This document shows positions 4,261 to 42,288 of a stretch of DNA of 43,467 bases, piece after piece. The notes below the pieces were generated by a model. The model saw nothing but the letters and a program-made list of their open reading frames with translations. It ran no database searches and was not told where the DNA came from. Position numbers and translations under genes: made by a program. The stretch's first letter is position 1. The number at the start of each line of letters is the position of its first letter. The DNA is from Candidatus Komeilibacteria bacterium (GTDB lineage Bacteria; Patescibacteriota; Patescibacteriia; UBA1558; GWA2-36-10): positions 1 to 43,467 of the forward strand of contig JABHYW010000035.1 of assembly GCA_018656655.1 (NCBI GenBank). Reading direction: 5' to 3'.

Positions 4261-5127
4261 ATGAAGCCAGATATTTCCATTATTATTGTTAATTGGAAAG
4301 TTAAAGATCTTTTAGAGAAATCTTTAAGCTCCATTTTTGCTTATCAGAAAGATTATCAAGTAGAAGTATTGGTAGTAGATAATAATAGTCAGGATGGTAG
4401 TGTGGCTATGATTAAGGAAAAATTTCCCCAAGTGATTCTAATATCCCTGTCTGATAATATTGGTTTTGGAGCTGCTAATAATCTAGCGATAAAAGAAGCT
4501 CAGGCGGAGTATATATTTTTATTAAATCCAGATACTGAAATAACAGAAGATTTTTTAGATAGAGCGCTTACTTATTTAAAAAATAATCCAAGCGTAGGTA
4601 TTATGGCACCTAGGATTATAAATAGCGATGGTAGTAAACAATTGTCTATTAGGCGTCATCCAGATTTGTTATCTCAGGTTTTAATAATGTTTAAGTTAAA
4701 AAATATTTTAGTTAATAATAAAATTCTTAATAATTATTTGCTAAAAGATTTTGACTATAATAAAGAGCAAACAGTCGATCAGATAATGGGCGCAGCGATG
4801 TTAATCCGTAAATCTGTCTTTGAAAAGATAGGTACTTTTGATGAAAAGTTTTTTGTCTGGTTTGAAGAAGTTGATTTATGTAAGAGAGCTGGTCAGGCTT
4901 CTATAATTATAAAATACTTTCCCAGTGCTGAAATTGTTCACCAAGGTGGAGAAAGTTTTTCTAAAAGTAATAGTTTGAAGAAACAAATAATTTTTAATAA
5001 AAGTTTATTGTACTATTTTTCAAAACATAAGCCTATTTGGCAAAGTTTAATAATTTTATTACTAATTCCAATTAATATAATTCTGACATTAATTTATGTC
5101 ATATTTTTCAAAAGAAAAACAAAATAA
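4261..5127 (+). CDS. Glycosyltransferase family 2
   Basis: GT2 motifs ISIIIVNW, VVDNNSQDGS, NIGFGAANN, LLNPD and FFVWFEEVDLC. Confidence 0.85.
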   Translation: MKPDISIIIVNWKVKDLLEKSLSSIFAYQKDYQVEVLVVDNNSQDGSVAMIKEKFPQVILISLSDNIGFGAANNLAIKEAQAEYIFLLNPDTEITEDFLDRALTYLKNNPSVGIMAPRIINSDGSKQLSIRRHPDLLSQVLIMFKLKNILVNNKILNNYLLKDFDYNKEQTVDQIMGAAMLIRKSVFEKIGTFDEKFFVWFEEVDLCKRAGQASIIIKYFPSAEIVHQGGESFSKSNSLKKQIIFNKSLLYYFSKHKPIWQSLIILLLIPINIILTLIYVIFFKRKTK

Positions 5128-14484: not shown

Positions 14485-15468
14485 ATGTATATAGTAATGG
14501 AAAAATCAAAAAAGACAATAATTAAACATATCCCCCACTTCTTAGAATACTGTGAAGTTGGTAAAGGTTTATCTAATCTAACTATTAAAAATTATGACAG
14601 ATTCCTTCGTCCTTTTCAGAATTGGTTAAATAAAAATAAACTATTAAATTTACTCCCCCATAATTTGACGCAAAAGCATATTTGGGATTATCGTTTATAT
14701 TTATCTAGGTATGTTAATCCTAATTTAAAATCTAATTTACAAAAGACAACACAAAATTATTATTTAATTGCTTTAAGAAATCTATTGTCTTATTTTGCTG
14801 AAAAAGACATATCCTCTCTCCCCCCAGAAAAGGTTAAACTTGGTAAAGATAAAAAGAGTCGGGTAGTAAAATTTTTATCATTAGATCAAATTGAAAAATT
14901 ATTATTATCACCTGATATTAAAAAATTTATAGGACTTAGAGATAGGGCTATTTTAGAAGTATTATTTAGTACTGGTTTGAGGGTATCGGAACTTATTGCT
15001 CTTAACATAGATGTAATTAATTTGGAAATATTAAATAAGAATAAAAAAAAGGGTCTAGAATTAGTAATAATTGGAAAAGGAAATCATCCAAGAACAGTAT
15101 ATTTATCAAATAGGGCTATAGAATGGCTAATTAAATATCTAAATGAAAGACATGATGATGATTTGGCTTTATTTATTAATGCATTGCAACATAAGAATAT
15201 TTTATCTAAACGCCTTTCAGCTCGATCTATAGAAATAATGATTAAAAAATATTGTAAACTTACTGGATTACCTATTACCACCACACCACATACTATACGA
15301 CACTCGTATGCTACAGATTTATTAGAACAGGGAGTAGATTTAAGAACAATACAGGAATTTCTTGGTCATCGTAATATCGTTACTACTCAGGTTTATACTC
15401 ATGTTACTAATAAACACTTAAGAGATGTTCACCAAGCATTTCATAGTGGAAGAAATTTAAAGAATTAA
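14485..15468 (+). CDS. Tyrosine recombinase, XerC/XerD-like
   Basis: SAM-like N-terminal domain. Catalytic residues are present: R in STGLRVSEL, HTIRHSYAT, and LGHRNIVTTQVYTHV with the terminal Y. Confidence 0.85.
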   Translation: MYIVMEKSKKTIIKHIPHFLEYCEVGKGLSNLTIKNYDRFLRPFQNWLNKNKLLNLLPHNLTQKHIWDYRLYLSRYVNPNLKSNLQKTTQNYYLIALRNLLSYFAEKDISSLPPEKVKLGKDKKSRVVKFLSLDQIEKLLLSPDIKKFIGLRDRAILEVLFSTGLRVSELIALNIDVINLEILNKNKKKGLELVIIGKGNHPRTVYLSNRAIEWLIKYLNERHDDDLALFINALQHKNILSKRLSARSIEIMIKKYCKLTGLPITTTPHTIRHSYATDLLEQGVDLRTIQEFLGHRNIVTTQVYTHVTNKHLRDVHQAFHSGRNLKN

Positions 15469-15472
15469 TAAT

Positions 15473-15973
15473 ATGAAGAAAAGCGAAAATTTAGCGTGGC
15501 ATATTGTAGAAAAAGAAATACATAAAGAGATAGAATGGTTGAAAAAATCTATTGATATTATGGGTAAGGCAGAGAATTCGCCAATACCTAGTGAATATTA
15601 TTTATATAGATTAATAGCTATTTTAATAGTTAGTGGACAGATTAAAGCTAGAGAAATAACTTCTGATAATTTATGGGGTGGATTAAGTTATGCTAAAATT
15701 GAGAAAGTACACAAACATGGGAAGGCTTGGCACAGAAAAATGATGGATATTATTGATAAATATTTTAAAGATCAAAATTATGATATTGTAACAGAGCCTA
15801 ATTTACATAACGGTCGGGCAGATTTAGGAATTTTTAAAAAAGGTAAAAAAGATTTGTATATTGAAGTCGGTACTACCTCTATTTATAAGTTATGTCTTAA
15901 TCTTCATTTTATGAAGGATATTATTATTTTAATCGTTCCATCTAATAACAAAGTAATCGAATTTGAAAAATAA
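15473..15973 (+). CDS. Hypothetical protein with PD-(D/E)XK / Hjc-VRR-NUC-like C-terminal motif
   Basis: 166 aa, packed between the two recombinase genes with gaps of 4 nt and 1 nt. The C-terminal GRADLGIFKKGKKDLYIEVGT resembles the G.(P)D..(x12)..(I/V)EVK strand pair of Hjc/VRR-NUC nucleases, but has G where the Lys normally sits. Confidence 0.55.
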   Translation: MKKSENLAWHIVEKEIHKEIEWLKKSIDIMGKAENSPIPSEYYLYRLIAILIVSGQIKAREITSDNLWGGLSYAKIEKVHKHGKAWHRKMMDIIDKYFKDQNYDIVTEPNLHNGRADLGIFKKGKKDLYIEVGTTSIYKLCLNLHFMKDIIILIVPSNNKVIEFEK

Positions 15974-15974
15974 T

Positions 15975-16907
15975 ATGCTTCCTCACTTTAAAGAATTTTT
16001 ATTATACTTAGAAAAAAAGGATTATTCTATTAAGACTATCCGTAGTTATGAAAGGGATTTAAATACTTTTGAAAATTTTTTAGAAAAAGATATTAAGACC
16101 GAGTTTAAAAAATTAACTAAGCGGTCCATTATTAAATTTAAGGCCTACCTCTCCTCTACTTCCAGAGAGACTGCTTTAAATAAGCCTGGTGAAAAGAAAT
16201 TATCAAGTTATAGTATCAATCGTATACTGTCAGCTTTACGTGCTTATTTAAAATTTTTGATTGATGTTGATTACAAAACTCCTGTTACTGCTGATGCTGT
16301 TAAGTTATTAAAAACTGAAAAGAAGTATGGGCAAGTGCCAGAGATGAGTCAATTAATTACTTTGATAGAAGCGCCTAATAAATTTGAAACTGATCCGACT
16401 ATTAAGTTACGTAATAGAGCCATGTTAGAAACTCTCTTCGCTACTGGTATGCGTATTTCGGAATTACTCTCTCTTAAACGTGAGCAGTTAGATAACACCG
16501 GACGGATTTATGTAATGGGTAAAGGTAAAAAACAACGTTTTGTTTATCTGACTCCGCGAGCTATTAAACATATTAAGGATTATTTAGCCACTCGCCATGA
16601 TCAAACACCTTATCTTTTTATTCCTTATCGGGGTTTAAATAATGCTGATAAGAATAAAAAGATATCTGCCAATTATTTACAAGCAAAAATAAAAAAATAT
16701 AGAGAACTTCTCTCTATTAATATACCTATTTCGGCTCACTCTATTCGTCATAGCTTTGCCACTTATTTAGCTGAAAATGGCGCTAATCCGGCGGCTATCC
16801 AAATACTCTTGGGTCATGAGTCTTTAGATACTACTACTCGTTATGTCCATGCTAGTGACCGTTACGCAGAAAAAATGCATACAGACTTCCATCCTCTTAA
16901 AAAATAA
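15975..16907 (+). CDS. Tyrosine recombinase, XerC/XerD-like
   Basis: Motifs ATGMRISELL, HSIRHSFATYL and LGHESLDTTTRYVHA. I placed the start at ATG 15975; the track start at 15963 is a TTG. Confidence 0.85.
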   Translation: MLPHFKEFLLYLEKKDYSIKTIRSYERDLNTFENFLEKDIKTEFKKLTKRSIIKFKAYLSSTSRETALNKPGEKKLSSYSINRILSALRAYLKFLIDVDYKTPVTADAVKLLKTEKKYGQVPEMSQLITLIEAPNKFETDPTIKLRNRAMLETLFATGMRISELLSLKREQLDNTGRIYVMGKGKKQRFVYLTPRAIKHIKDYLATRHDQTPYLFIPYRGLNNADKNKKISANYLQAKIKKYRELLSINIPISAHSIRHSFATYLAENGANPAAIQILLGHESLDTTTRYVHASDRYAEKMHTDFHPLKK

Positions 16908-29214: not shown

Positions 29215-29280
29215 GACATTTTTTATATTTTTTACCTGAACCACCCTTCGGCTTCGCTCAGGACGTCGCGTATATATTAT

Positions 29281-36437: not shown

Positions 36438-36653
36438 TACGTTGATATGGGACTTAAGTTTAATAATATTTTATACTAAAACAAGTTCTTTCTTTGCCTT
36501 ATGTGTATTTCTACACTCACTGCAATATTGTAGTTGATCTTTTTTTTGAGCATTTTGAGTAATTTCAAATAATTTGATAGAAAGTGGTGTAGCCACAGAA
36601 GAGGACGGCGATTTACGTCTAGCAATGTAATTAAAAGAAATAAAATGCTGTTT

Positions 36654-36684
36654 AAAAATCACCTTAACTGGTGATTTTTTGTTT
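36654..36684. repeat. Terminator-like repeat, copy 1 (aaaaatcaccttaactggtgattttttgttt)
   Basis: Nearly identical to 37945..37975. The aatcacc/ggtgatt hairpin is flanked by A5 and T6. Confidence 0.7.
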
Positions 36685-36846
36685 GTTTAGCTAGAACATC
36701 CTCTATGTTGCAGTTATCAATAAAAATGCCGGACACTATCTACTATCAGAACTTATTTTAGGGATGGTTTTGAGGAGTTTTTTATACCTGATTTACAGAT
36801 AGACTAATATTAGTTATGCTTATAACATAAATGATTAATAAAAAAT

Positions 36847-37551: not shown

Positions 37552-37929
37552 ATGAGTGAAAAAAAATTAAAAAGAGGAATATATTCTGACATAAAAGTAA
37601 TAGATTTAGGTAACAAAGAATTAATTTTTGTAGCAGGACAAATTGCTAGAGATAAAAATGGAGCAATAGCCCCAGATAATATAGAAGTACAGACTGAATT
37701 TATTTTTCAATCTATTAGCAAAATTTTAAAAGGAGCTGGCTCTTCTTTAGATGACGTAGTTAAAGCAGTAATTTATTTAACAAATATAGAAAACTTCTTA
37801 AAGATTTCAAAAGTTAGAGATAAGTACTTCGAAAAAGCAAAGCCTGTAAGTACTCTAGTAGAAATTGGAGCTACAACCAGGCCAGGATGTAATATCGAAA
37901 TAGAAGTGACAGCTGTTAGAAAAAAATAA
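37552..37929 (+). CDS. ridA: RidA/YjgF/L-PSP family reactive-intermediate deaminase
   Basis: 125 aa. Has GQIA.., DVVKAVIYLTNIENF and a C-terminal IEIEVTAV pattern. Confidence 0.88.
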   Translation: MSEKKLKRGIYSDIKVIDLGNKELIFVAGQIARDKNGAIAPDNIEVQTEFIFQSISKILKGAGSSLDDVVKAVIYLTNIENFLKISKVRDKYFEKAKPVSTLVEIGATTRPGCNIEIEVTAVRKK

Positions 37930-37944
37930 AACATTTTTAAAAAT

Positions 37945-37975
37945 AAAAATCACCTTAACTGGTGGTTTTTTGTTT
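37945..37975. repeat. Terminator-like repeat, copy 2 (aaaaatcaccttaactggtggttttttgttt)
   Basis: Terminator of ridA. It differs from copy 1 at one stem position. Confidence 0.75.
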
Positions 37976-37980
37976 ATTAA

Positions 37981-38000: not shown

Positions 38001-38040
38001 AATAAAAAAATAACACTAATATTAGTGTTAAATTTTCTAG

Positions 38041-38115
38041 AACTCCTTACGCCTGCCCTGAGCAAAATCCTGAGTTTATCAAAGGATGAGTCGAATGGGG
38101 AACCTTGGTTATAAA
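38041..38115 (-). repeat. GC-rich 3' repeat, copy A
   Basis: aactccttacgcctgccctgagcaaaatcctgagtttatcaaaggatgagtcgaatggggaaccttggttataaa. It contains the TAA stop of the HAD gene. Confidence 0.9.
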
Positions 38116-38738
38116 TTTGTAATATCTATTTCTGCAAAACTACTTACAATATAATCTGCCGGATAATCTTTTCTTTTATCATTAACTAAACCTATGCATT
38201 TCATTCCTGCATTTTTAGCTGCCCGCATACCATTAACACCATCCTCTATAACAATACAATCTTCTGGACTTACTTGTAATTGCCTGGCTGCTTCCAAAAA
38301 AATGTCTGGTGCTGGCTTGCCGTTAGAAACTTCTGTGCCACTTACTTTTACTAAAAAATATTCTTCTATGCCTAGTTCATTCAAAACTAATTTAATAAAT
38401 GGCTTTATAGATGCAGATGCAACCGCCAGTCTATAATCATTATTATAAAGAATCTTAATAAAATCCACAGAACCCGAAATTTCCTTTATTGTACCTTTAG
38501 CTTCTGAAAAAATCATTTCCCACTTTTCTTCGGTGACTTTTTCTAAATCAACTTGTTTTCCAAAATCAGAAAAAACTTTTGGAAAAAATTCTTCATCTGA
38601 AACACCTGCGTACTTTTCGGTTATTTCATCAGCCGATAATTGTATCCCATATTTATTTAACAATTTTTCTTCGTTGTTTGCTTGCAAATTTTGGGTGTCA
38701 GAGATGACACCATCCATATCGAATATAAAAACTTTCAT
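38109..38738 (-). CDS. HAD-IA hydrolase (beta-phosphoglucomutase-like)
   Basis: Motif I FDMDGVISDT, motif II ASAS, GKPAPD, and motif IV VIEDGVNGMRAAKNAGM. Confidence 0.85.
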   Translation of the reverse strand: MKVFIFDMDGVISDTQNLQANNEEKLLNKYGIQLSADEITEKYAGVSDEEFFPKVFSDFGKQVDLEKVTEEKWEMIFSEAKGTIKEISGSVDFIKILYNNDYRLAVASASIKPFIKLVLNELGIEEYFLVKVSGTEVSNGKPAPDIFLEAARQLQVSPEDCIVIEDGVNGMRAAKNAGMKCIGLVNDKRKDYPADYIVSSFAEIDITNL

Positions 38739-38778
38739 AATTTAAGTATACAAAAAAACGCCTATAAAGGCGAATTTT
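38739..38778 (-). repeat. Conserved start-proximal module, copy 1 (terminator hairpin plus TATACT box abutting the ATG)
   Basis: Minus strand reads aaaattcgcctttataggcgtttttttgTATACTtaaattATG. Near-identical to 39927..39966. Confidence 0.8.
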
Positions 38779-38807
38779 ATTTACAGGTTATAAAACTGTA
38801 CGTTTGG

Positions 38808-38880
38808 AACTCCTTACGCCTGCCCTGAACAAAATCCTGAGTTTATCGAAGGATGAGTCGAATGGGAACCCTGGTTATAC
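38808..38880 (-). repeat. GC-rich 3' repeat, copy B
   Basis: Starts 3 nt after the S66 peptidase stop. Differs from the consensus at about 3 positions. Confidence 0.9.
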
Positions 38881-38882
38881 GT

Positions 38883-39926
38883 TTATTTATCTTTTAACCA
38901 TGTCTCTACTAGGTTGACTTTTTTATTCTGACAGTCAATCTCTGCTTTCACTCCTAATGGTAAAATTAGTTGCGGATCAGTGTGACCAATATCAAAATTA
39001 GCCACAACTGGTAAATTTGGCTTATTAAATTCTTTTGAAATAATATTAATTATTTTATCTTCTAATTCTTTTTTTTCATCATCTGAGTAATCTCTTGCAC
39101 GTGAAAAAATAAACCCACTTATTTGATCAAATACGCCCAACATCCCATAGTTTCTTAAAACATGATCTACATAATGTAATGATGGTTTTTCTTCTGATGT
39201 CTCAAGAAAAAATATTTTATTTTTCCAAAATTTTTGCGAAGGCCAAAATTTTGTTGCCTTCATCATTTCTAAAACTTCAATACAGCCACCAAATAGCTCA
39301 CCCTGAACCCTTGTGTCCCCTTGAAGCCAGTGCCAGCCGTCATTATTTTTTAATTGATTCACTTTTCCTAAATTTTTTTTGTTTGCCCAATCAGGGTAAC
39401 CATCGGAATATTTTTCGTAAGCCTTGTATTCATAATTATCTCCTGGTTCAAAAAGTATTTCTCTAACATGAGCTTTAAAATTTTCTGGCAAACTGTTCAT
39501 TTGCGAAAAACCAGCCATAATTGACGGTCCATAAAAACTAATAAGTCCCAACAAAGAGGCAAACGTGTGAAGCGTTGAAGTGTCCGAATAGCCAATTAAT
39601 ATTTTTGGATTATTTATAATAATATCTTTATCTAGAAAGGGTAAAATACGTACCGAATCATCACCACCAATTGAGGTAAAAATAGCTTTGACCTCAGGAT
39701 CTGCAAAAGCATCATTAATATCTTTTGCTCTAATACGCGGATTATCCCTTAAAAAAGTTGGCTCCATTCTAGTTGTTGGGAATTCTTTAATTTGCAAACC
39801 CCAGCTCTTTAATATCTTGAGGCCATTTTCATATACGTGTGTAAATACGCTTGGCCCTCCCCAAGATGGAGACAAGACCGCTACTGTATCACCAGAATTT
39901 AATTTTCTTGATTTTTTATATTTCAT
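38883..39926 (-). CDS. S66-family LD-carboxypeptidase (LdcA/MccF-like)
   Basis: GDTVAVLSPSWGG, the nucleophile motif GYSDTSTLH, and a C-terminal GHTDPQLILPLG. Confidence 0.85.
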   Translation of the reverse strand: MKYKKSRKLNSGDTVAVLSPSWGGPSVFTHVYENGLKILKSWGLQIKEFPTTRMEPTFLRDNPRIRAKDINDAFADPEVKAIFTSIGGDDSVRILPFLDKDIIINNPKILIGYSDTSTLHTFASLLGLISFYGPSIMAGFSQMNSLPENFKAHVREILFEPGDNYEYKAYEKYSDGYPDWANKKNLGKVNQLKNNDGWHWLQGDTRVQGELFGGCIEVLEMMKATKFWPSQKFWKNKIFFLETSEEKPSLHYVDHVLRNYGMLGVFDQISGFIFSRARDYSDDEKKELEDKIINIISKEFNKPNLPVVANFDIGHTDPQLILPLGVKAEIDCQNKKVNLVETWLKDK

Positions 39927-39966
39927 ATATTAAGTATACAAAAAAACGCCTACTAAGGCGAATTTT
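39927..39966 (-). repeat. Conserved start-proximal module, copy 2
   Basis: Minus strand reads aaaattcgccttagtaggcgtttttttgTATACTtaatatATG. Confidence 0.8.
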
Positions 39967-39970
39967 CTGG

Positions 39971-40044
39971 AGCTCCTTACGCCTGCCCTGAGCAAAATCC
40001 TGAGTTTATCGAAGGATGAGTCGAATGGGGACCTTGGTTATAAA
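39971..40044 (-). repeat. GC-rich 3' repeat, copy C
   Basis: Starts 14 nt after the stop of the small membrane protein gene. Confidence 0.9.
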
Positions 40045-40057
40045 TTAATCTAAAAAA

Positions 40058-40306
40058 CTATTTACCTTGCTCTTTAACAATAAATACCAATATAATAACA
40101 AATGTAACAATTCCTAATAGATATAGATTCTCAGATCGTACTCCTATAAGATGAAGAAAGCTCGCAACTACAGCAATTAGCAAAAAATAAACTATTGGAT
40201 TTCCAAAAATTTTCTTGATATTCTTTCTATCTTCTACAATTGTGGCTATTAGAACACCGCCAAAGAATAAAAAAAATAAAATTACTATTATATAATCGAA
40301 AATCAT
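40058..40306 (-). CDS. Small membrane protein (82 aa, about 3 TM)
   Basis: Hydrophobic ORF 16 nt downstream of the NYN gene. Likely co-transcribed with it. Confidence 0.45.
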   Translation of the reverse strand: MIFDYIIVILFFLFFGGVLIATIVEDRKNIKKIFGNPIVYFLLIAVVASFLHLIGVRSENLYLLGIVTFVIILVFIVKEQGK

Positions 40307-40322
40307 ATATCTACTTTAATAA

Positions 40323-40874
40323 TTATAGAGATATTCGTTTAAAGAATGATTTACGAGCACGCCTTGTAATATCAGAAGATTTCCTTAAGGCTCCAGAAAA
40401 ATATCCTCTAAAAAATAAAACTTCTACCCGTTTACCAAGTTTTTTAGTATTTTCTAATGCGCTTGTAAAGTCGCCATCATTAGAAACAAGAACAACCGCA
40501 TCACATTCCCCTAGAGCAGCATGCGCCACCATATCTGAACAAATCTGAGTATCAACATTCTTTTCTTGTGGTTCTGATTTACCTCCCTGCAAATACCCGT
40601 ATTTAATTTCTACCTTGTCCAATTTATCCACTGCTGAATAATATTTACTTGCCATTGCATGCCTATTTCTACTCTCGTCACTTTCGCTAAGTAGCCATGC
40701 TGGCGGTGGTACACAATAAAAATAGACTTTACCTAATTCCCTTGAACCAACAAGTGATTTTGATAATTCTAAAGGATCATACATTTGAACCCAATAAGAA
40801 TCCTCTAAAGATTCGTTTATCTTCCTAATGTTTTTAAAAACATTGCTATTATCTATGTATACATTGACTTTCAT
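40323..40874 (-). CDS. NYN-domain (LabA/DUF88-like, PIN-related) putative ribonuclease
   Basis: N-terminal VYIDNSNVF, internal EKNVDTQI, and VLVSNDGDF, matching the acidic motifs of NYN domains. Confidence 0.72.
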   Translation of the reverse strand: MKVNVYIDNSNVFKNIRKINESLEDSYWVQMYDPLELSKSLVGSRELGKVYFYCVPPPAWLLSESDESRNRHAMASKYYSAVDKLDKVEIKYGYLQGGKSEPQEKNVDTQICSDMVAHAALGECDAVVLVSNDGDFTSALENTKKLGKRVEVLFFRGYFSGALRKSSDITRRARKSFFKRISL

Positions 40875-41071
40875 TGTGATGTGGTATTATTTTGAGTATA
40901 ACAAAAGAGGGCTTTCACCCCCTCTCGTTGCTTATCCTCGCCGAAGCAAAAGATAAGGATTTCTTAATCTAAGTTTTACATGAAAGAGATTATTTGTCAA
41001 GTAGTTTAATACGTAAAAAATAACCCCTGAGGATTAGTTTTCATTTTTAGGTTATAAACCCAGGTGTCTGG

Positions 41072-41145
41072 AGCTCCTTACGCCTGCCCTGAGCAAAATC
41101 CTGAGTTTATCGAAGGATGAGTCGAATGGGAACCATGGTTATAAA
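41072..41145 (-). repeat. GC-rich 3' repeat, copy D
   Basis: Contains the TAA stop of the S51 peptidase gene. Flanked by direct GGTTATAAA repeats at 41050-41058 and 41137-41145. Confidence 0.9.
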
Positions 41146-41765
41146 TTAATTTCTTTTTTATTACCAATTAATTCTACTTCATCATCTTTAACTAGTAGAG
41201 CCTGCTCATCATTTAAAATTTTTACTTGATATTTGGTATTTTTAATGGCATCTATAAGTATTTTTTTGTTCTTTGGATCATAATGTACAGACATTAAGAA
41301 CGGAACATAATTAAGCCCTGTCAAATCTTTTAAACTATACCTTGGTTTACTGTCTGTTTTCCATGTGGCCATTTCAATGGTAGGACACATTATATAGCTA
41401 CCAGCACTTGAACCCACATATACAATGCCTTCCTCTATCAATTTACGAAGTGTTTTATCAAAACCAGATTCTTTGATAACCTTCAATAGATAAAAAGTAT
41501 TACCTCCTTCTATATAAATAGCATCCTTATCTTTTAATTTAGCTAATAATTCATCTTGATTTTGCCCCTCAATATCAATTTCTTCAAAATCCCAACCCAT
41601 CTCAATCATACTATCCCTGCGTATCTCTAAATATGATAAATCATCAATAACTTTAGCTGCTGTCGTAATCCAGGCTACTTTTAAATCGCTACCTTGTTTA
41701 CCAATTATCTCTGGCAAAAATTTGCTGACAGTTTTTCCACTTGATGTTAATAATAGAGTTTTCAT
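41139..41765 (-). CDS. S51-family peptidase (peptidase E / cyanophycinase-like)
   Basis: IYIEGGNTFYLL and the nucleophile segment VGSSAGSYIM. Confidence 0.8.
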   Translation of the reverse strand: MKTLLLTSSGKTVSKFLPEIIGKQGSDLKVAWITTAAKVIDDLSYLEIRRDSMIEMGWDFEEIDIEGQNQDELLAKLKDKDAIYIEGGNTFYLLKVIKESGFDKTLRKLIEEGIVYVGSSAGSYIMCPTIEMATWKTDSKPRYSLKDLTGLNYVPFLMSVHYDPKNKKILIDAIKNTKYQVKILNDEQALLVKDDEVELIGNKKEINL

Positions 41766-41846
41766 AAATTAATATTATCAAAAAATGTCAACATTGGCGA
41801 ATTTTATACAAACAAAAAAACAAGTATTAAACTTGCTTTCTTGTGG

Positions 41847-41872
41847 AGCTCCTTATGGACCTTGGTTATAAA
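41847..41872 (-). repeat. GC-rich 3' repeat, copy E (short form lacking the roughly 49-nt core)
   Basis: agctcctta|tggaccttggttataaa retains both ends of the repeat joined directly. Confidence 0.75.
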
Positions 41873-41906
41873 TAAAAAGTACCCAATTATAATATAATTG
41901 GGTACC
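41873..41906 (-). terminator. Terminator after the fabD remnant
   Basis: Perfect 12-bp gtacccaattat/ataattgggtac hairpin followed, on the minus strand, by TTTTTA. Confidence 0.75.
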
Positions 41907-41910
41907 CTAA

Positions 41911-42288
41911 CTAAACACTTTGTATCTTAACTGTATTGTCTATTTTTTTAATTAATGCTTGCAATACTTTTCCAGGGCCAATTTCTGTAAAACTATTAGC
42001 GCCATCAAAAATCATATTCCTTATAGTTTGGGTCCACCTTACAGGCCGAACAAGTTGTGCAACTAAGTTTTGTTTTATTTCATCGGGATCAAGCGATGGA
42101 CTAGCACTTACATTCTGATATATTGGGCAAATAGGGCACTTGAATTTTGTGCCTTCAATTACAGTCCTAAGCTCCTGCTCAGCTACCTGCATCAATGGCG
42201 AGTGAAATGCTCCGCCAACTTCCAGCTGAATTATTTTTCTTGCGCCTTCTTTTTTGAGTTTAACAATGGCAATATCTAGATTGACCAG
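41911..42288 (-). pseudogene. fabD: Malonyl-CoA:ACP transacylase (FabD) C-terminal remnant
   Basis: The open frame reads ..KIIQLEVGGAFHSPLMQVAEQEL...VRPVRW...FTEIGPGKVLQALIKKI, which matches roughly the last 125 aa of FabD. The N-terminal roughly 60%, including the GHSxG nucleophile, is absent, and an in-frame stop lies at 42289-42291. Confidence 0.7.

Follow-up and report, generated by a model that had tools for sequence, protein, structure and literature searches.

A 74-nt repeat from a Candidatus Komeilibacteria genome: probable mosaic extragenic spacers that hold a nested, cross-phylum hairpin

A GC-rich repeat of 74 nt recurs between unrelated minus-strand genes on contig JABHYW010000035.1 of a Candidatus Komeilibacteria bacterium (assembly GCA_018656655.1), whose 43,467 nucleotides are referred to here as the window. 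Three layers are nested in the 74-mer: a module specific to the lineage encloses one GC-rich hairpin element, which in turn encloses another. It is neither an integron-type recombination site nor a dedicated RNA of 3'-untranslated regions (3'-UTRs). On balance we lean towards reading it as a non-coding mosaic spacer, similar to the bacterial interspersed mosaic elements (BIMEs) and repetitive extragenic palindromes (REPs), that was duplicated or homogenised within an accessory island.

Copies and anatomy of the repeat

A preliminary description of the window, made from the sequence alone, had placed five copies of the repeat, A to E, and all five are present where it had put them (Table 1). 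A repeat finder returned a family of four members with spacings of 767, 1163 and 1101 nt. The 57-nt core of these long copies, CCCATTCGAC...GTAAGGAG, matched the minus strand four times with at most one mismatch (38043-38099, 38810-38866, 39973-40029 and 41074-41130), while 100 shuffles yielded no match. No further copies of the core or of the flank motifs were found elsewhere in the 43-kb window, and the array spans 3.9 kb. Pairwise, copies A to D share 75 to 82 positions over about 85 nt, C and D being the closest pair with 82 of 85 positions identical. GGAGTTC is common to A and B, GGAGCTC to C and D. The copies contain 44-47% GC compared with 31.2% for the window, in agreement with the contrast in composition described earlier. 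Copy E consists of the two repeat ends only, TTTATAACCAAGGT at 41859-41872 and TAAGGAGCTCCAC at 41843-41855.

The base module comprises about 30 nt, TTTATAACC-AAGGTCC-GTAA-GGAGCTCC, in which an AT-rich stretch is followed by the small hairpin AAGGTCC-GUAA-GGAGCUCC. It occurs without an insert as copy E and at a related metagenome locus. The latter is represented by L188 and L189, two short contigs of a related AT-rich population that were retrieved by a metagenome scan; the collection is evidently incomplete for the present genome, because the source contig was absent from the matches. Alignment of A to E with the copies of L188 and L189 gave a graded series that runs from short through intermediate to long. 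The short form, TTTATAACCAAGGTCC/GTAAGGAGCTCCA, is that of copy E, L188 2096 and L189 517. The intermediate form, L189 6333, carries CCCATTCGACTCACTTCGTTCGCTCAGGGCAGGC at the insertion point and thus the outer element only, and in the long forms A to D the insert holds ATCCTTCGATAAACTCAGGAT in addition. Throughout the series the insertion boundaries are identical (GGTCC, insert, GTAAGGAG).

On folding, the short module forms a hairpin, AGGTCC-(G/A)TAA-GGAGCT, with z = -2.07, and the insertion point is the loop of this hairpin. Because the short forms are without the GC-rich part, the latter is dispensable. The outer element was found without the inner one at L189 6333, at L195 4621 in a relative and at 4783 and 5465 of L001, which continues the same contig just past the right end of the window. 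Pairing of the inner hairpin in the window is AUCCU/AGGAU.

The GC-rich hairpin across phyla

The inner 17-mer, CCTTCGAYAARCTCAGG (39999-40015 and equivalents), forms a hairpin with covarying closing pairs and an 11-nt loop that is almost invariant (TCGAYAARCTC; GAGYTTRTCGA on the other strand). It was found in more than 120 viral contigs at least. The nested pattern TTCGAC-N0-6-CCTTYGATAAACTCAGG-N0-8-GYTCAGG occurred in 66 stretches of GTDB genomes (596 Gb). By our own arithmetic, a pattern with about 29 specified bases should match by chance only some 3e-4 times in this amount of sequence. Among the groups concerned are Anaerolineae, Dehalococcoidia, Desulfobacterota, Flavobacteriia, Bacteroidales, Gammaproteobacteria, Verrucomicrobiota, KSB1 and Clostridia as well as at least 10 groups of Patescibacteria (candidate phyla radiation, CPR). 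Forms nested in their own loop are known here from phage contigs and from no fewer than 15 groups of phylum level. The canonical inverted doublet is present, unannotated, on plasmids of Comamonas, Moraxella osloensis and Sphingobium, and arrays of the hairpin exist, e.g. in Planktosalinus lacus (L133 3880-4300).

Covariation was analysed in 116 distinct viral instances, in which the two base pairs beside the invariant CCT/AGG covary. The first closing pair is paired in 107 of them (CG 56, UA 25, UG 15, GC 7). The covariation score was 0.246 versus 0.154 in shuffles; none of 500 shuffles reached it and slid controls were lower. Pairing is better on the CCUGAG...CGAAGG strand (115/125) than on the complement (97/125), and the better-pairing strand is antisense to the genes in the window. 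A general stem beyond about 5 bp was not found in the cross-phylum hairpin. In low-GC loci the hairpin was oriented opposite to the genes in 21 cases and alike in 7 (about 14 versus 6 without duplicates), a bias that is suggestive only.

Rfam assigned no family to canonical copies of the hairpin in 15 other loci, and none to the Planktosalinus array at E up to 1. A literature search by nucleotide and peptide strings and by REP and REPIN terms did not find a description of the hairpin, which may go by another name. The spurious peptides that the repeat encodes, PFDKLRANG and VSLSNHE, probably recur in database open reading frames (ORFs); presumably, then, the hairpin would explain the recurrence of ORFs of this type in metagenome annotations.

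The element occupies loops of three types, namely a terminator loop, the loop of the lineage module and its own loop. For the first of these the window contains the empty counterpart, the GreA terminator with a plain 6-nt loop. In relatives with 85% identity of alanyl-tRNA synthetase (AlaRS) the GreA terminator reads AAAACCGCC-CTGAGCGTAGTCGAATG-GGCGGTTTT, and the element CCCATTCGAC..GCTCAGGG is inside its loop. The loop content at the orthologous terminator is CCCATTCGACTACGCTCAGGG (L195 4606-4645, L197 4621-4660), which results in an empty/filled pair. Targeted insertion would explain the loop pattern just as well as selection that tolerates insertions only in loops.

Adjoining terminator- and promoter-like blocks

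According to the preliminary description a different terminator follows each copy. This did not hold for B and C, whose hairpins belong to one second repeat family. The family reaches the start codon of the next gene (38733-38778 versus 39921-39966, 91% identical) and has a third copy at 41760-41805. After C, B and, in diverged form, E the layout is AAAATTCGCC-hairpin-T7-GTATACT with the ATG of the S66, HAD and S51 genes exactly 6 nt on. The window contains only these three copies of the block, each about 6 nt upstream of an ATG. Their hairpins and T-runs score as terminators. The hexamer TATACT, TAATAT or TATAAT 6 nt before the ATG and the lack of a Shine-Dalgarno (SD) motif suggest a leaderless promoter. 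An SD-like motif precedes about 3 of 30 genes of the window and many have a TATAAT-like box 6-10 nt before the ATG, which suggests that leaderless translation is widespread in the organism. Because the genome hardly uses SD motifs, the TAAGGAG of the module is not a ribosome-binding site; as the ribosome-binding site of a small ORF it was rejected also for want of a start codon within 12 nt in any copy.

The position of the module relative to the block varies. It abuts the putative -35 region in copy C, L188 2096 and L189 6333, and in copy A it abuts a diverged block without a gene. In B, D and E the module and the promoter are separated by 25-37 extra nt; those after B and D are 25-nt inserts analogous to the AT-rich hairpin that follows copy E. 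In L189 the genes on either side of module and block diverge, and another conserved promoter (TTTACA-17-TATTAT-6-ATG) points in the opposite direction. The module is therefore tied to the start of the downstream gene, not to the 3' end of the upstream one.

Four of the five copies in the window, A to D, are situated between a stop codon and a terminator-like hairpin, and copies A and D include the stop codons of HAD and S51, respectively, as had been described. Copy E does not follow the fabD remnant directly, as a 15-bp terminator hairpin separates the two; E and L189 517 are each flanked by two terminators. The repeat has no U-run and is not an intrinsic terminator itself, the terminator-like hairpins being separate and downstream.

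A 35-nt terminator hairpin (TAAAAATCACCTTAACTGGTG.TTTTTT) is present twice, at 36653-36687 and 37944-37978 (94% identical), and flanks a block of a 215-aa gene and a RidA-family gene. For the upstream one of the two there is no gene that it could terminate.

Table 1. Coordinates of the repeat copies, their layers and neighbouring features (window positions unless indicated)
Feature	Position	Strand	Remarks
Long mosaic copy A	38041..38115	-	Overlaps HAD stop codon; no downstream gene; faces convergent RidA-family gene
Long mosaic copy B	38808..38880	-	Between S66 stop codon and HAD promoter block
Long mosaic copy C	39971..40044	-	Between small membrane-protein gene and S66 promoter block
Long mosaic copy D	41072..41145	-	Overlaps S51 stop codon
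Short copy E	41843..41872	-	Base module alone, 30 nt; TTTATAACCAAGGTCC-ATAA-GGAGCTCCAC; small hairpin AGGTCC/GGAGCT (z = -2.07)
49-nt GC-rich insert in base-module loop, copy C	39981..40029	-	Outer element CCCATTCGAC...GCTCAGGGCAGGC; from alignment
Equivalent 49-nt inserts	38051-38099 (A), 38818-38866 (B), 41082-41130 (D)
Inner hairpin core, copy C	39999..40015	-	CCTTCGATAAACTCAGG; nested in outer element; identical to cross-phylum 17-mer
Inner core, other copies	38069-38085 (1 mismatch), 38836-38852, 41100-41116
Second repeat family, S66 gene	39932..39966	-	AAAATTCGCC-hairpin-TTTTTTTGTATACTT, ATG 6 nt on; terminator-like, overlaps putative leaderless promoter
Same promoter/terminator-like block, HAD gene	38744..38778	-	Upstream of gene
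Diverged promoter-like block, S51 gene	41771..41805	-	Upstream of gene
Optional AT-rich terminator-like hairpin	41806..41842	-	From copy E to promoter block; same hairpin at same position in L189 (547-583)
Hairpin and T-run after copy A	38003..38036	-	TAACACTA-ATAT-TAGTGTTA; diverged counterpart of promoter block, no gene behind
15-bp terminator hairpin of fabD remnant	41876..41908	-	Upstream of copy E
Genes separated by repeats	38109..41765	-	HAD 38109-38738, S66 38883-39926, small membrane protein 40058-40306, NYN 40323-40874, S51 41139-41765
RidA-family (Ribonuc_L-PSP) gene	37552-37929		Convergent to copy A
GreA terminator, plain 6-nt loop	36014..36048	+	AAAAACCGCC-TACTTA-GCGGTTTTT; empty counterpart of L195 and L197
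Other repeated spacers in L001	3552-3622, 7481-7551, 4732-4851, 5414-5533, 334-365		L001 coordinates

The accessory island

Pfam and NCBIfam confirmed the genes as assigned earlier, i.e. HAD, S66, NYN, S51 and the C-terminal remnant of fabD. They also form unrelated units, as had been proposed, each with apparent promoter-like and terminator-like sequences of its own and with a common boundary sequence in between. The fabD remnant (41911-42195) matches only positions 203-288 of the 290-position model, has a TTG start and is a fragment at the edge of the array. The lineage of its host is not expected to make fatty acids.

The array is part of an island of about 10-11.5 kb, and none of the relatives examined has the same genes between MnmA and GreA. 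Relatives with 85, 83 and 79% AlaRS identity retain AlaRS-S30AE-SecA and GreA; MnmA is on the far side of the interval in those with 83 and 79%. A relative with 85% is a metagenome-assembled genome of 'Ca. Komeilibacteria'. Neither the module nor the promoter block was found in the DNA of these relatives. Variation within the species, which would be expected of the cassette-like array considered earlier, was not observed, as 24 contigs have the same neighbouring genes.

Module and promoter block border other genes in L188 and L189, namely those of a radical-SAM-like protein, a transporter of the major facilitator superfamily (MFS) and a 904-aa protein; the MFS protein of L189 occurs only on fragments of at most 1.2 kb. 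The S66 gene has homologues of up to 79% identity in five other contexts with unrelated surroundings and no module, and the idea that the repeat travels with this gene was rejected on these grounds. Horizontal movement of this gene is suggested by an identity of 70-79% between S66/MccF-like genes from distant CPR classes. The closest homologue (79% identity), on another Patescibacteria contig (L200 128-3280), adjoins a large serine recombinase.

Further spacers of the island, located in L001, are repeated modules as well. X1 and X2 (120 nt, 89% identical) hold an element of the intermediate type in opposite orientation inside a terminator-like hairpin. Y1 and Y2 have the same left part as X1 and X2 without the element, and an additional copy of the element directly follows MnmA. 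The element is thus present in 7 copies in the island of about 11.5 kb versus 1 degenerate copy in the other 38 kb or so, none of them as doublets. The degenerate copy (29247-29262, TTCGGCTTCGCTCAGG) is isolated between SecA and a NUDIX gene and is the only one outside the island in the sequence examined.

Integron, RNA and other identities

The integron attachment site attC is an imperfect palindrome of 57-141 nt that, when single-stranded, adopts a long stem from which extrahelical bases protrude. The present repeat folded poorly: as single-stranded DNA (ssDNA) the minimum free energy was -4.6 to -6.0 kcal/mol (z of +0.1 to +1.0), and as RNA both strands folded worse than dinucleotide shuffles (z of +1.1 to +2.0). 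Thus there is no attC-like imperfect palindrome, as the manual folding of the preliminary description had already indicated. Complementary R'' (RYYYAAC) and R' (GTTRRRY) sites were not seen by inspection; the ends TTATAAC and GTAAGGA deviate and are not complementary. Equally, no integron integrase is near the repeat. Just two tyrosine recombinases are encoded in the window, at 14485-15468 and 15963-16907; they match XerC/XerD best and reached 93 and 73 bits on the integron-integrase model TIGR02249, which has a cutoff of 265. They have a housekeeping context with FtsQ and alanine racemase adjoining, 22 kb from the array. Other recombinases were absent from the Pfam tables, which covered window positions 1180-43467 plus 6.5 kb beyond the right end (about 49 kb); all in all, about 56 kb of the 676-kb genome were examined. 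Finally, integron cassettes are mostly promoterless, whereas three genes here have the conserved promoter-like block 6 nt before their ATG. The suggestion of a cluster of attC sites lacking an integrase (CALIN) was abandoned accordingly, as was an identity with attC or Vibrio cholerae repeats (VCRs). Between the two XerC/XerD-like genes there is a 166-aa ORF without a family match.

The second suggestion of the preliminary description, a conserved 3'-UTR RNA module, is not supported either. The module lies between divergent genes in L189, where it goes with the downstream promoter, and it is therefore not a 3'-UTR tag. Moreover, copy E is preceded by a terminator, the GC-rich part is dispensable and the element is reversed in neighbouring spacers of the island. 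Rfam had no match at the gathering score in the window and nothing over the repeats at E up to 10. On this result, the poor folding and copy A without a downstream gene, a riboswitch or leader upstream of each gene was rejected. ARAGORN detected neither tRNA nor tmRNA in the window, and inspection showed no T-arm pairing around either TTCGA motif, so att repeats derived from tRNA or tmRNA by tandem island integration were rejected.

Several other candidates were considered. A resemblance between the base module and the end of 16S rRNA on its 3' side (TAACAAGGTAACCGTAGG...) was dropped, as the small-subunit models gave no match at E up to 10. A dif- or pdif-like Xer site in the GTATAC region was dismissed because on inspection its arms are unlike dif. 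TTTATAACC, a candidate target-site duplication, recurs after copies B and D only (2 of 4) and is near-palindromic in itself. Terminal inverted repeats as in miniature inverted-repeat transposable elements (MITEs) were found neither at the ends of the 74-mer nor at those of the insert. A phage origin was rejected since the module and the promoter block each had 0 matches in viral contigs.

Interpretation and alternatives

The explanation that we prefer, a mosaic spacer that was copied or homogenised within the island, would work as follows. The lineage module normally lies just upstream of the block AAAATTCGCC-hairpin-T-run-GTATACT-6 nt-ATG, and the block would end the upstream transcript and start a leaderless downstream one. 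The cross-phylum GC-rich element occupies the loop of the base hairpin and holds a further copy of itself in its own loop. The loaded module may then have spread by copying to four successive spacers of an island peculiar to the species, or have been homogenised among them, the likely route being homologous recombination or gene conversion between neighbouring spacers. As an outcome, each acquired gene would have the same insulated transcription unit. The subgroups A/B and C/D fit such copying between neighbours, and we infer duplication or gene conversion as the mechanism of spreading. The GC-rich insert is most likely a passenger, a selfish repeat of the REP or MITE kind that is tolerated in hairpin loops.

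Several points weigh against this explanation. The base module is strongly conserved, with AAGGT, TAAGGAG and TCCA invariant in 8 copies, which hints at a function. The short and long forms may have arisen by insertion or by precise deletion. No mobiliser of the hairpin element is known. The promoter and terminator roles are predictions from the sequence, and a generic sigma-70 scan did not call the block promoters, whose putative -35 region TTCGCC matches TTGACA in 3 of 6 positions. Because the sequence examined is only a small part of the genome, the module may not be confined to islands. Lastly, unrelated genes that are each bounded by the same module are also expected from cassette exchange.

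The last point leads to a cassette system of a non-integron type, in which the spacer modules would serve as portable homology or recombination sites for RecA, XerC/D or another enzyme, and accessory genes with their own promoters would be inserted, swapped or lost at these sites. Of the undescribed cassette system envisaged in the preliminary description this version survives only weakly, and we regard it as unlikely. The unrelated single-gene units, an interval that differs in every relative and the occurrence of module and block at other accessory genes in L188 and L189 would all agree with it. The two contigs are short, as a hypervariable region would give, the 35-nt terminator is found on both sides of the block of the 215-aa and RidA-family genes, and two Xer-type recombinases are encoded 22 kb away. 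However, the neighbouring genes are invariant among the 24 contigs of the species, the repeat has neither an attC-like fold nor R''/R' sites, a dif-like 28-mer was not seen by eye, the Xer genes are in their housekeeping context and S66 homologues in other genomes do without the module. In a more speculative reading, which we also think unlikely, the GC-rich heart would belong to a "nano" mobile element that is shared across phyla and so far undescribed. Such an element would be a hairpin of some 20-35 nt that lands in existing hairpin loops, and the loaded spacers of this lineage would act as homology or recombination points for the assembly of accessory islands.

Less credible still is a functional RNA with the polarity of the genes. 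It could stabilise the 3'-UTR or mark a processing site there, or else be a small RNA that begins behind the TATAAC box and stops at the next terminator. The location of A to D between stop codon and terminator-like hairpin would suit the former, that of E and L189 517 between two terminators the latter. The base module is a small hairpin, has a GUAA loop of the GNRA type in L188 and L189, and its two stem substitutions, C to T in A/B and B/D, retain G.U pairs on the gene strand. Yet the long form folds worse than shuffles, an insertion of 49 nt is tolerated in the loop, the element lies between divergent genes in L189, the cross-phylum core pairs better on the strand antisense to the genes here, Rfam found nothing and TAAGGAG is not a ribosome-binding site. 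The copies of the module are too few and too similar for a covariation test. We give as little credence to a shared operator or UP element, i.e. a base module that binds the regulator of a small accessory regulon via the adjacent special promoter, with constraint as the cause of the identity between copies. The palindrome GGAGCTCC within the module, its contact with the putative -35 region in C, L188 2096 and L189 6333 and with the gene-less block in A, its position between two divergent promoters in L189 and a block too rare to be the general promoter of the genome (3 copies in 43 kb) are compatible with an operator. This is countered by the 49-nt insertion that splits the putative site in 4 of 5 copies, the 25-37 extra nt before the promoter in B, D and E and the absence of a gene downstream of copy A. 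Furthermore, the identity covers positions that look non-functional as well as the passenger insert, and therefore points to recent copying rather than constraint.

Comparison with known systems

Like the BIMEs with their REPs or palindromic units (PUs) in enterobacteria such as E. coli, the present repeats are non-coding and extragenic, are found after stop codons or between genes and often near terminators, and are mosaics of small GC-rich hairpins and short conserved motifs in combinations that vary by spacer. They differ by a core that occurs across phyla, while that of BIMEs is species-specific, by hairpins that are nested instead of side by side and by a tiny copy number, forming a cluster in one island of the region examined. 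REP doublets (REPINs) are mobilised by a Y1/HUH transposase, the REP-associated tyrosine transposase (RAYT). Both the REPIN and the cross-phylum core are short GC-rich hairpins with a covarying stem, the canonical cross-phylum form is often an inverted doublet, and the hairpin is compatible with a mechanism at the level of ssDNA. On the other hand, REPINs are lineage-specific and vertically inherited, whereas the core is identical across phyla; a GTAG-type 5' tetranucleotide is lacking here, the copies of the window are not doublets, and no RAYT or Y1_Tnp domain is encoded in the approximately 49 kb with Pfam tables.

With attC/VCR arrays and CALINs the locus has in common that unrelated small genes of the same orientation, each with the same repeat of about 70 nt, make up a variable region. 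In contrast to those, it shows no imperfect palindrome, no R''/L''/L'/R' boxes and no IntI, its genes have apparent promoters of their own, the repeat goes with the downstream promoter and is also found between divergent genes, and its GC-rich centre is dispensable. Correia elements (Correia repeat enclosed elements, CREE) of Neisseria are likewise small intergenic repeats that bring promoter or terminator activity to their neighbours, but their 26-bp terminal inverted repeats, their TA target duplication and their hundreds of copies have no counterpart in what was seen here. Insertion into the loop of an existing palindromic repeat is known from IS1397, ISKpn1 and IS110-family elements in REP loops, and the mobile GC clusters of yeast mitochondria are GC-rich palindromes that invade AT-rich spacers. 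Unlike these, the inserted entity in the present case is about 20-35 nt long and non-coding and has no known transposase or endonuclease.

The locus is an instance of mosaic extragenic repeats, nested in this case and in a Patescibacteria genome; more unusual is a cross-phylum hairpin that nests in its own loop. For the window, a concrete anatomy takes the place of the integron-like label. If the roles proposed for the spacers are correct, a streamlined genome of 0.68 Mb would equip acquired genes with a copied terminator-and-leaderless-promoter spacer. The core of the repeat connects the locus to a hairpin that distant phyla and viral contigs share without change over 17-30 nt. If the hairpin is truly undescribed, it would offer a cheap and testable entry to a very small class of mobile or templated DNA.

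Other features of the window

The spacer of about 190 nt between copy D and the NYN gene (40876-41066) contains a TTGACA-type box, the hairpin CCTTATC...GATAAGG and, before the NYN start, a strong terminator at 40905-40926. It had no match in Rfam and could be a leader or attenuator or a small RNA. The sign of the GC skew changes between about 16 and 28 kb of the window.

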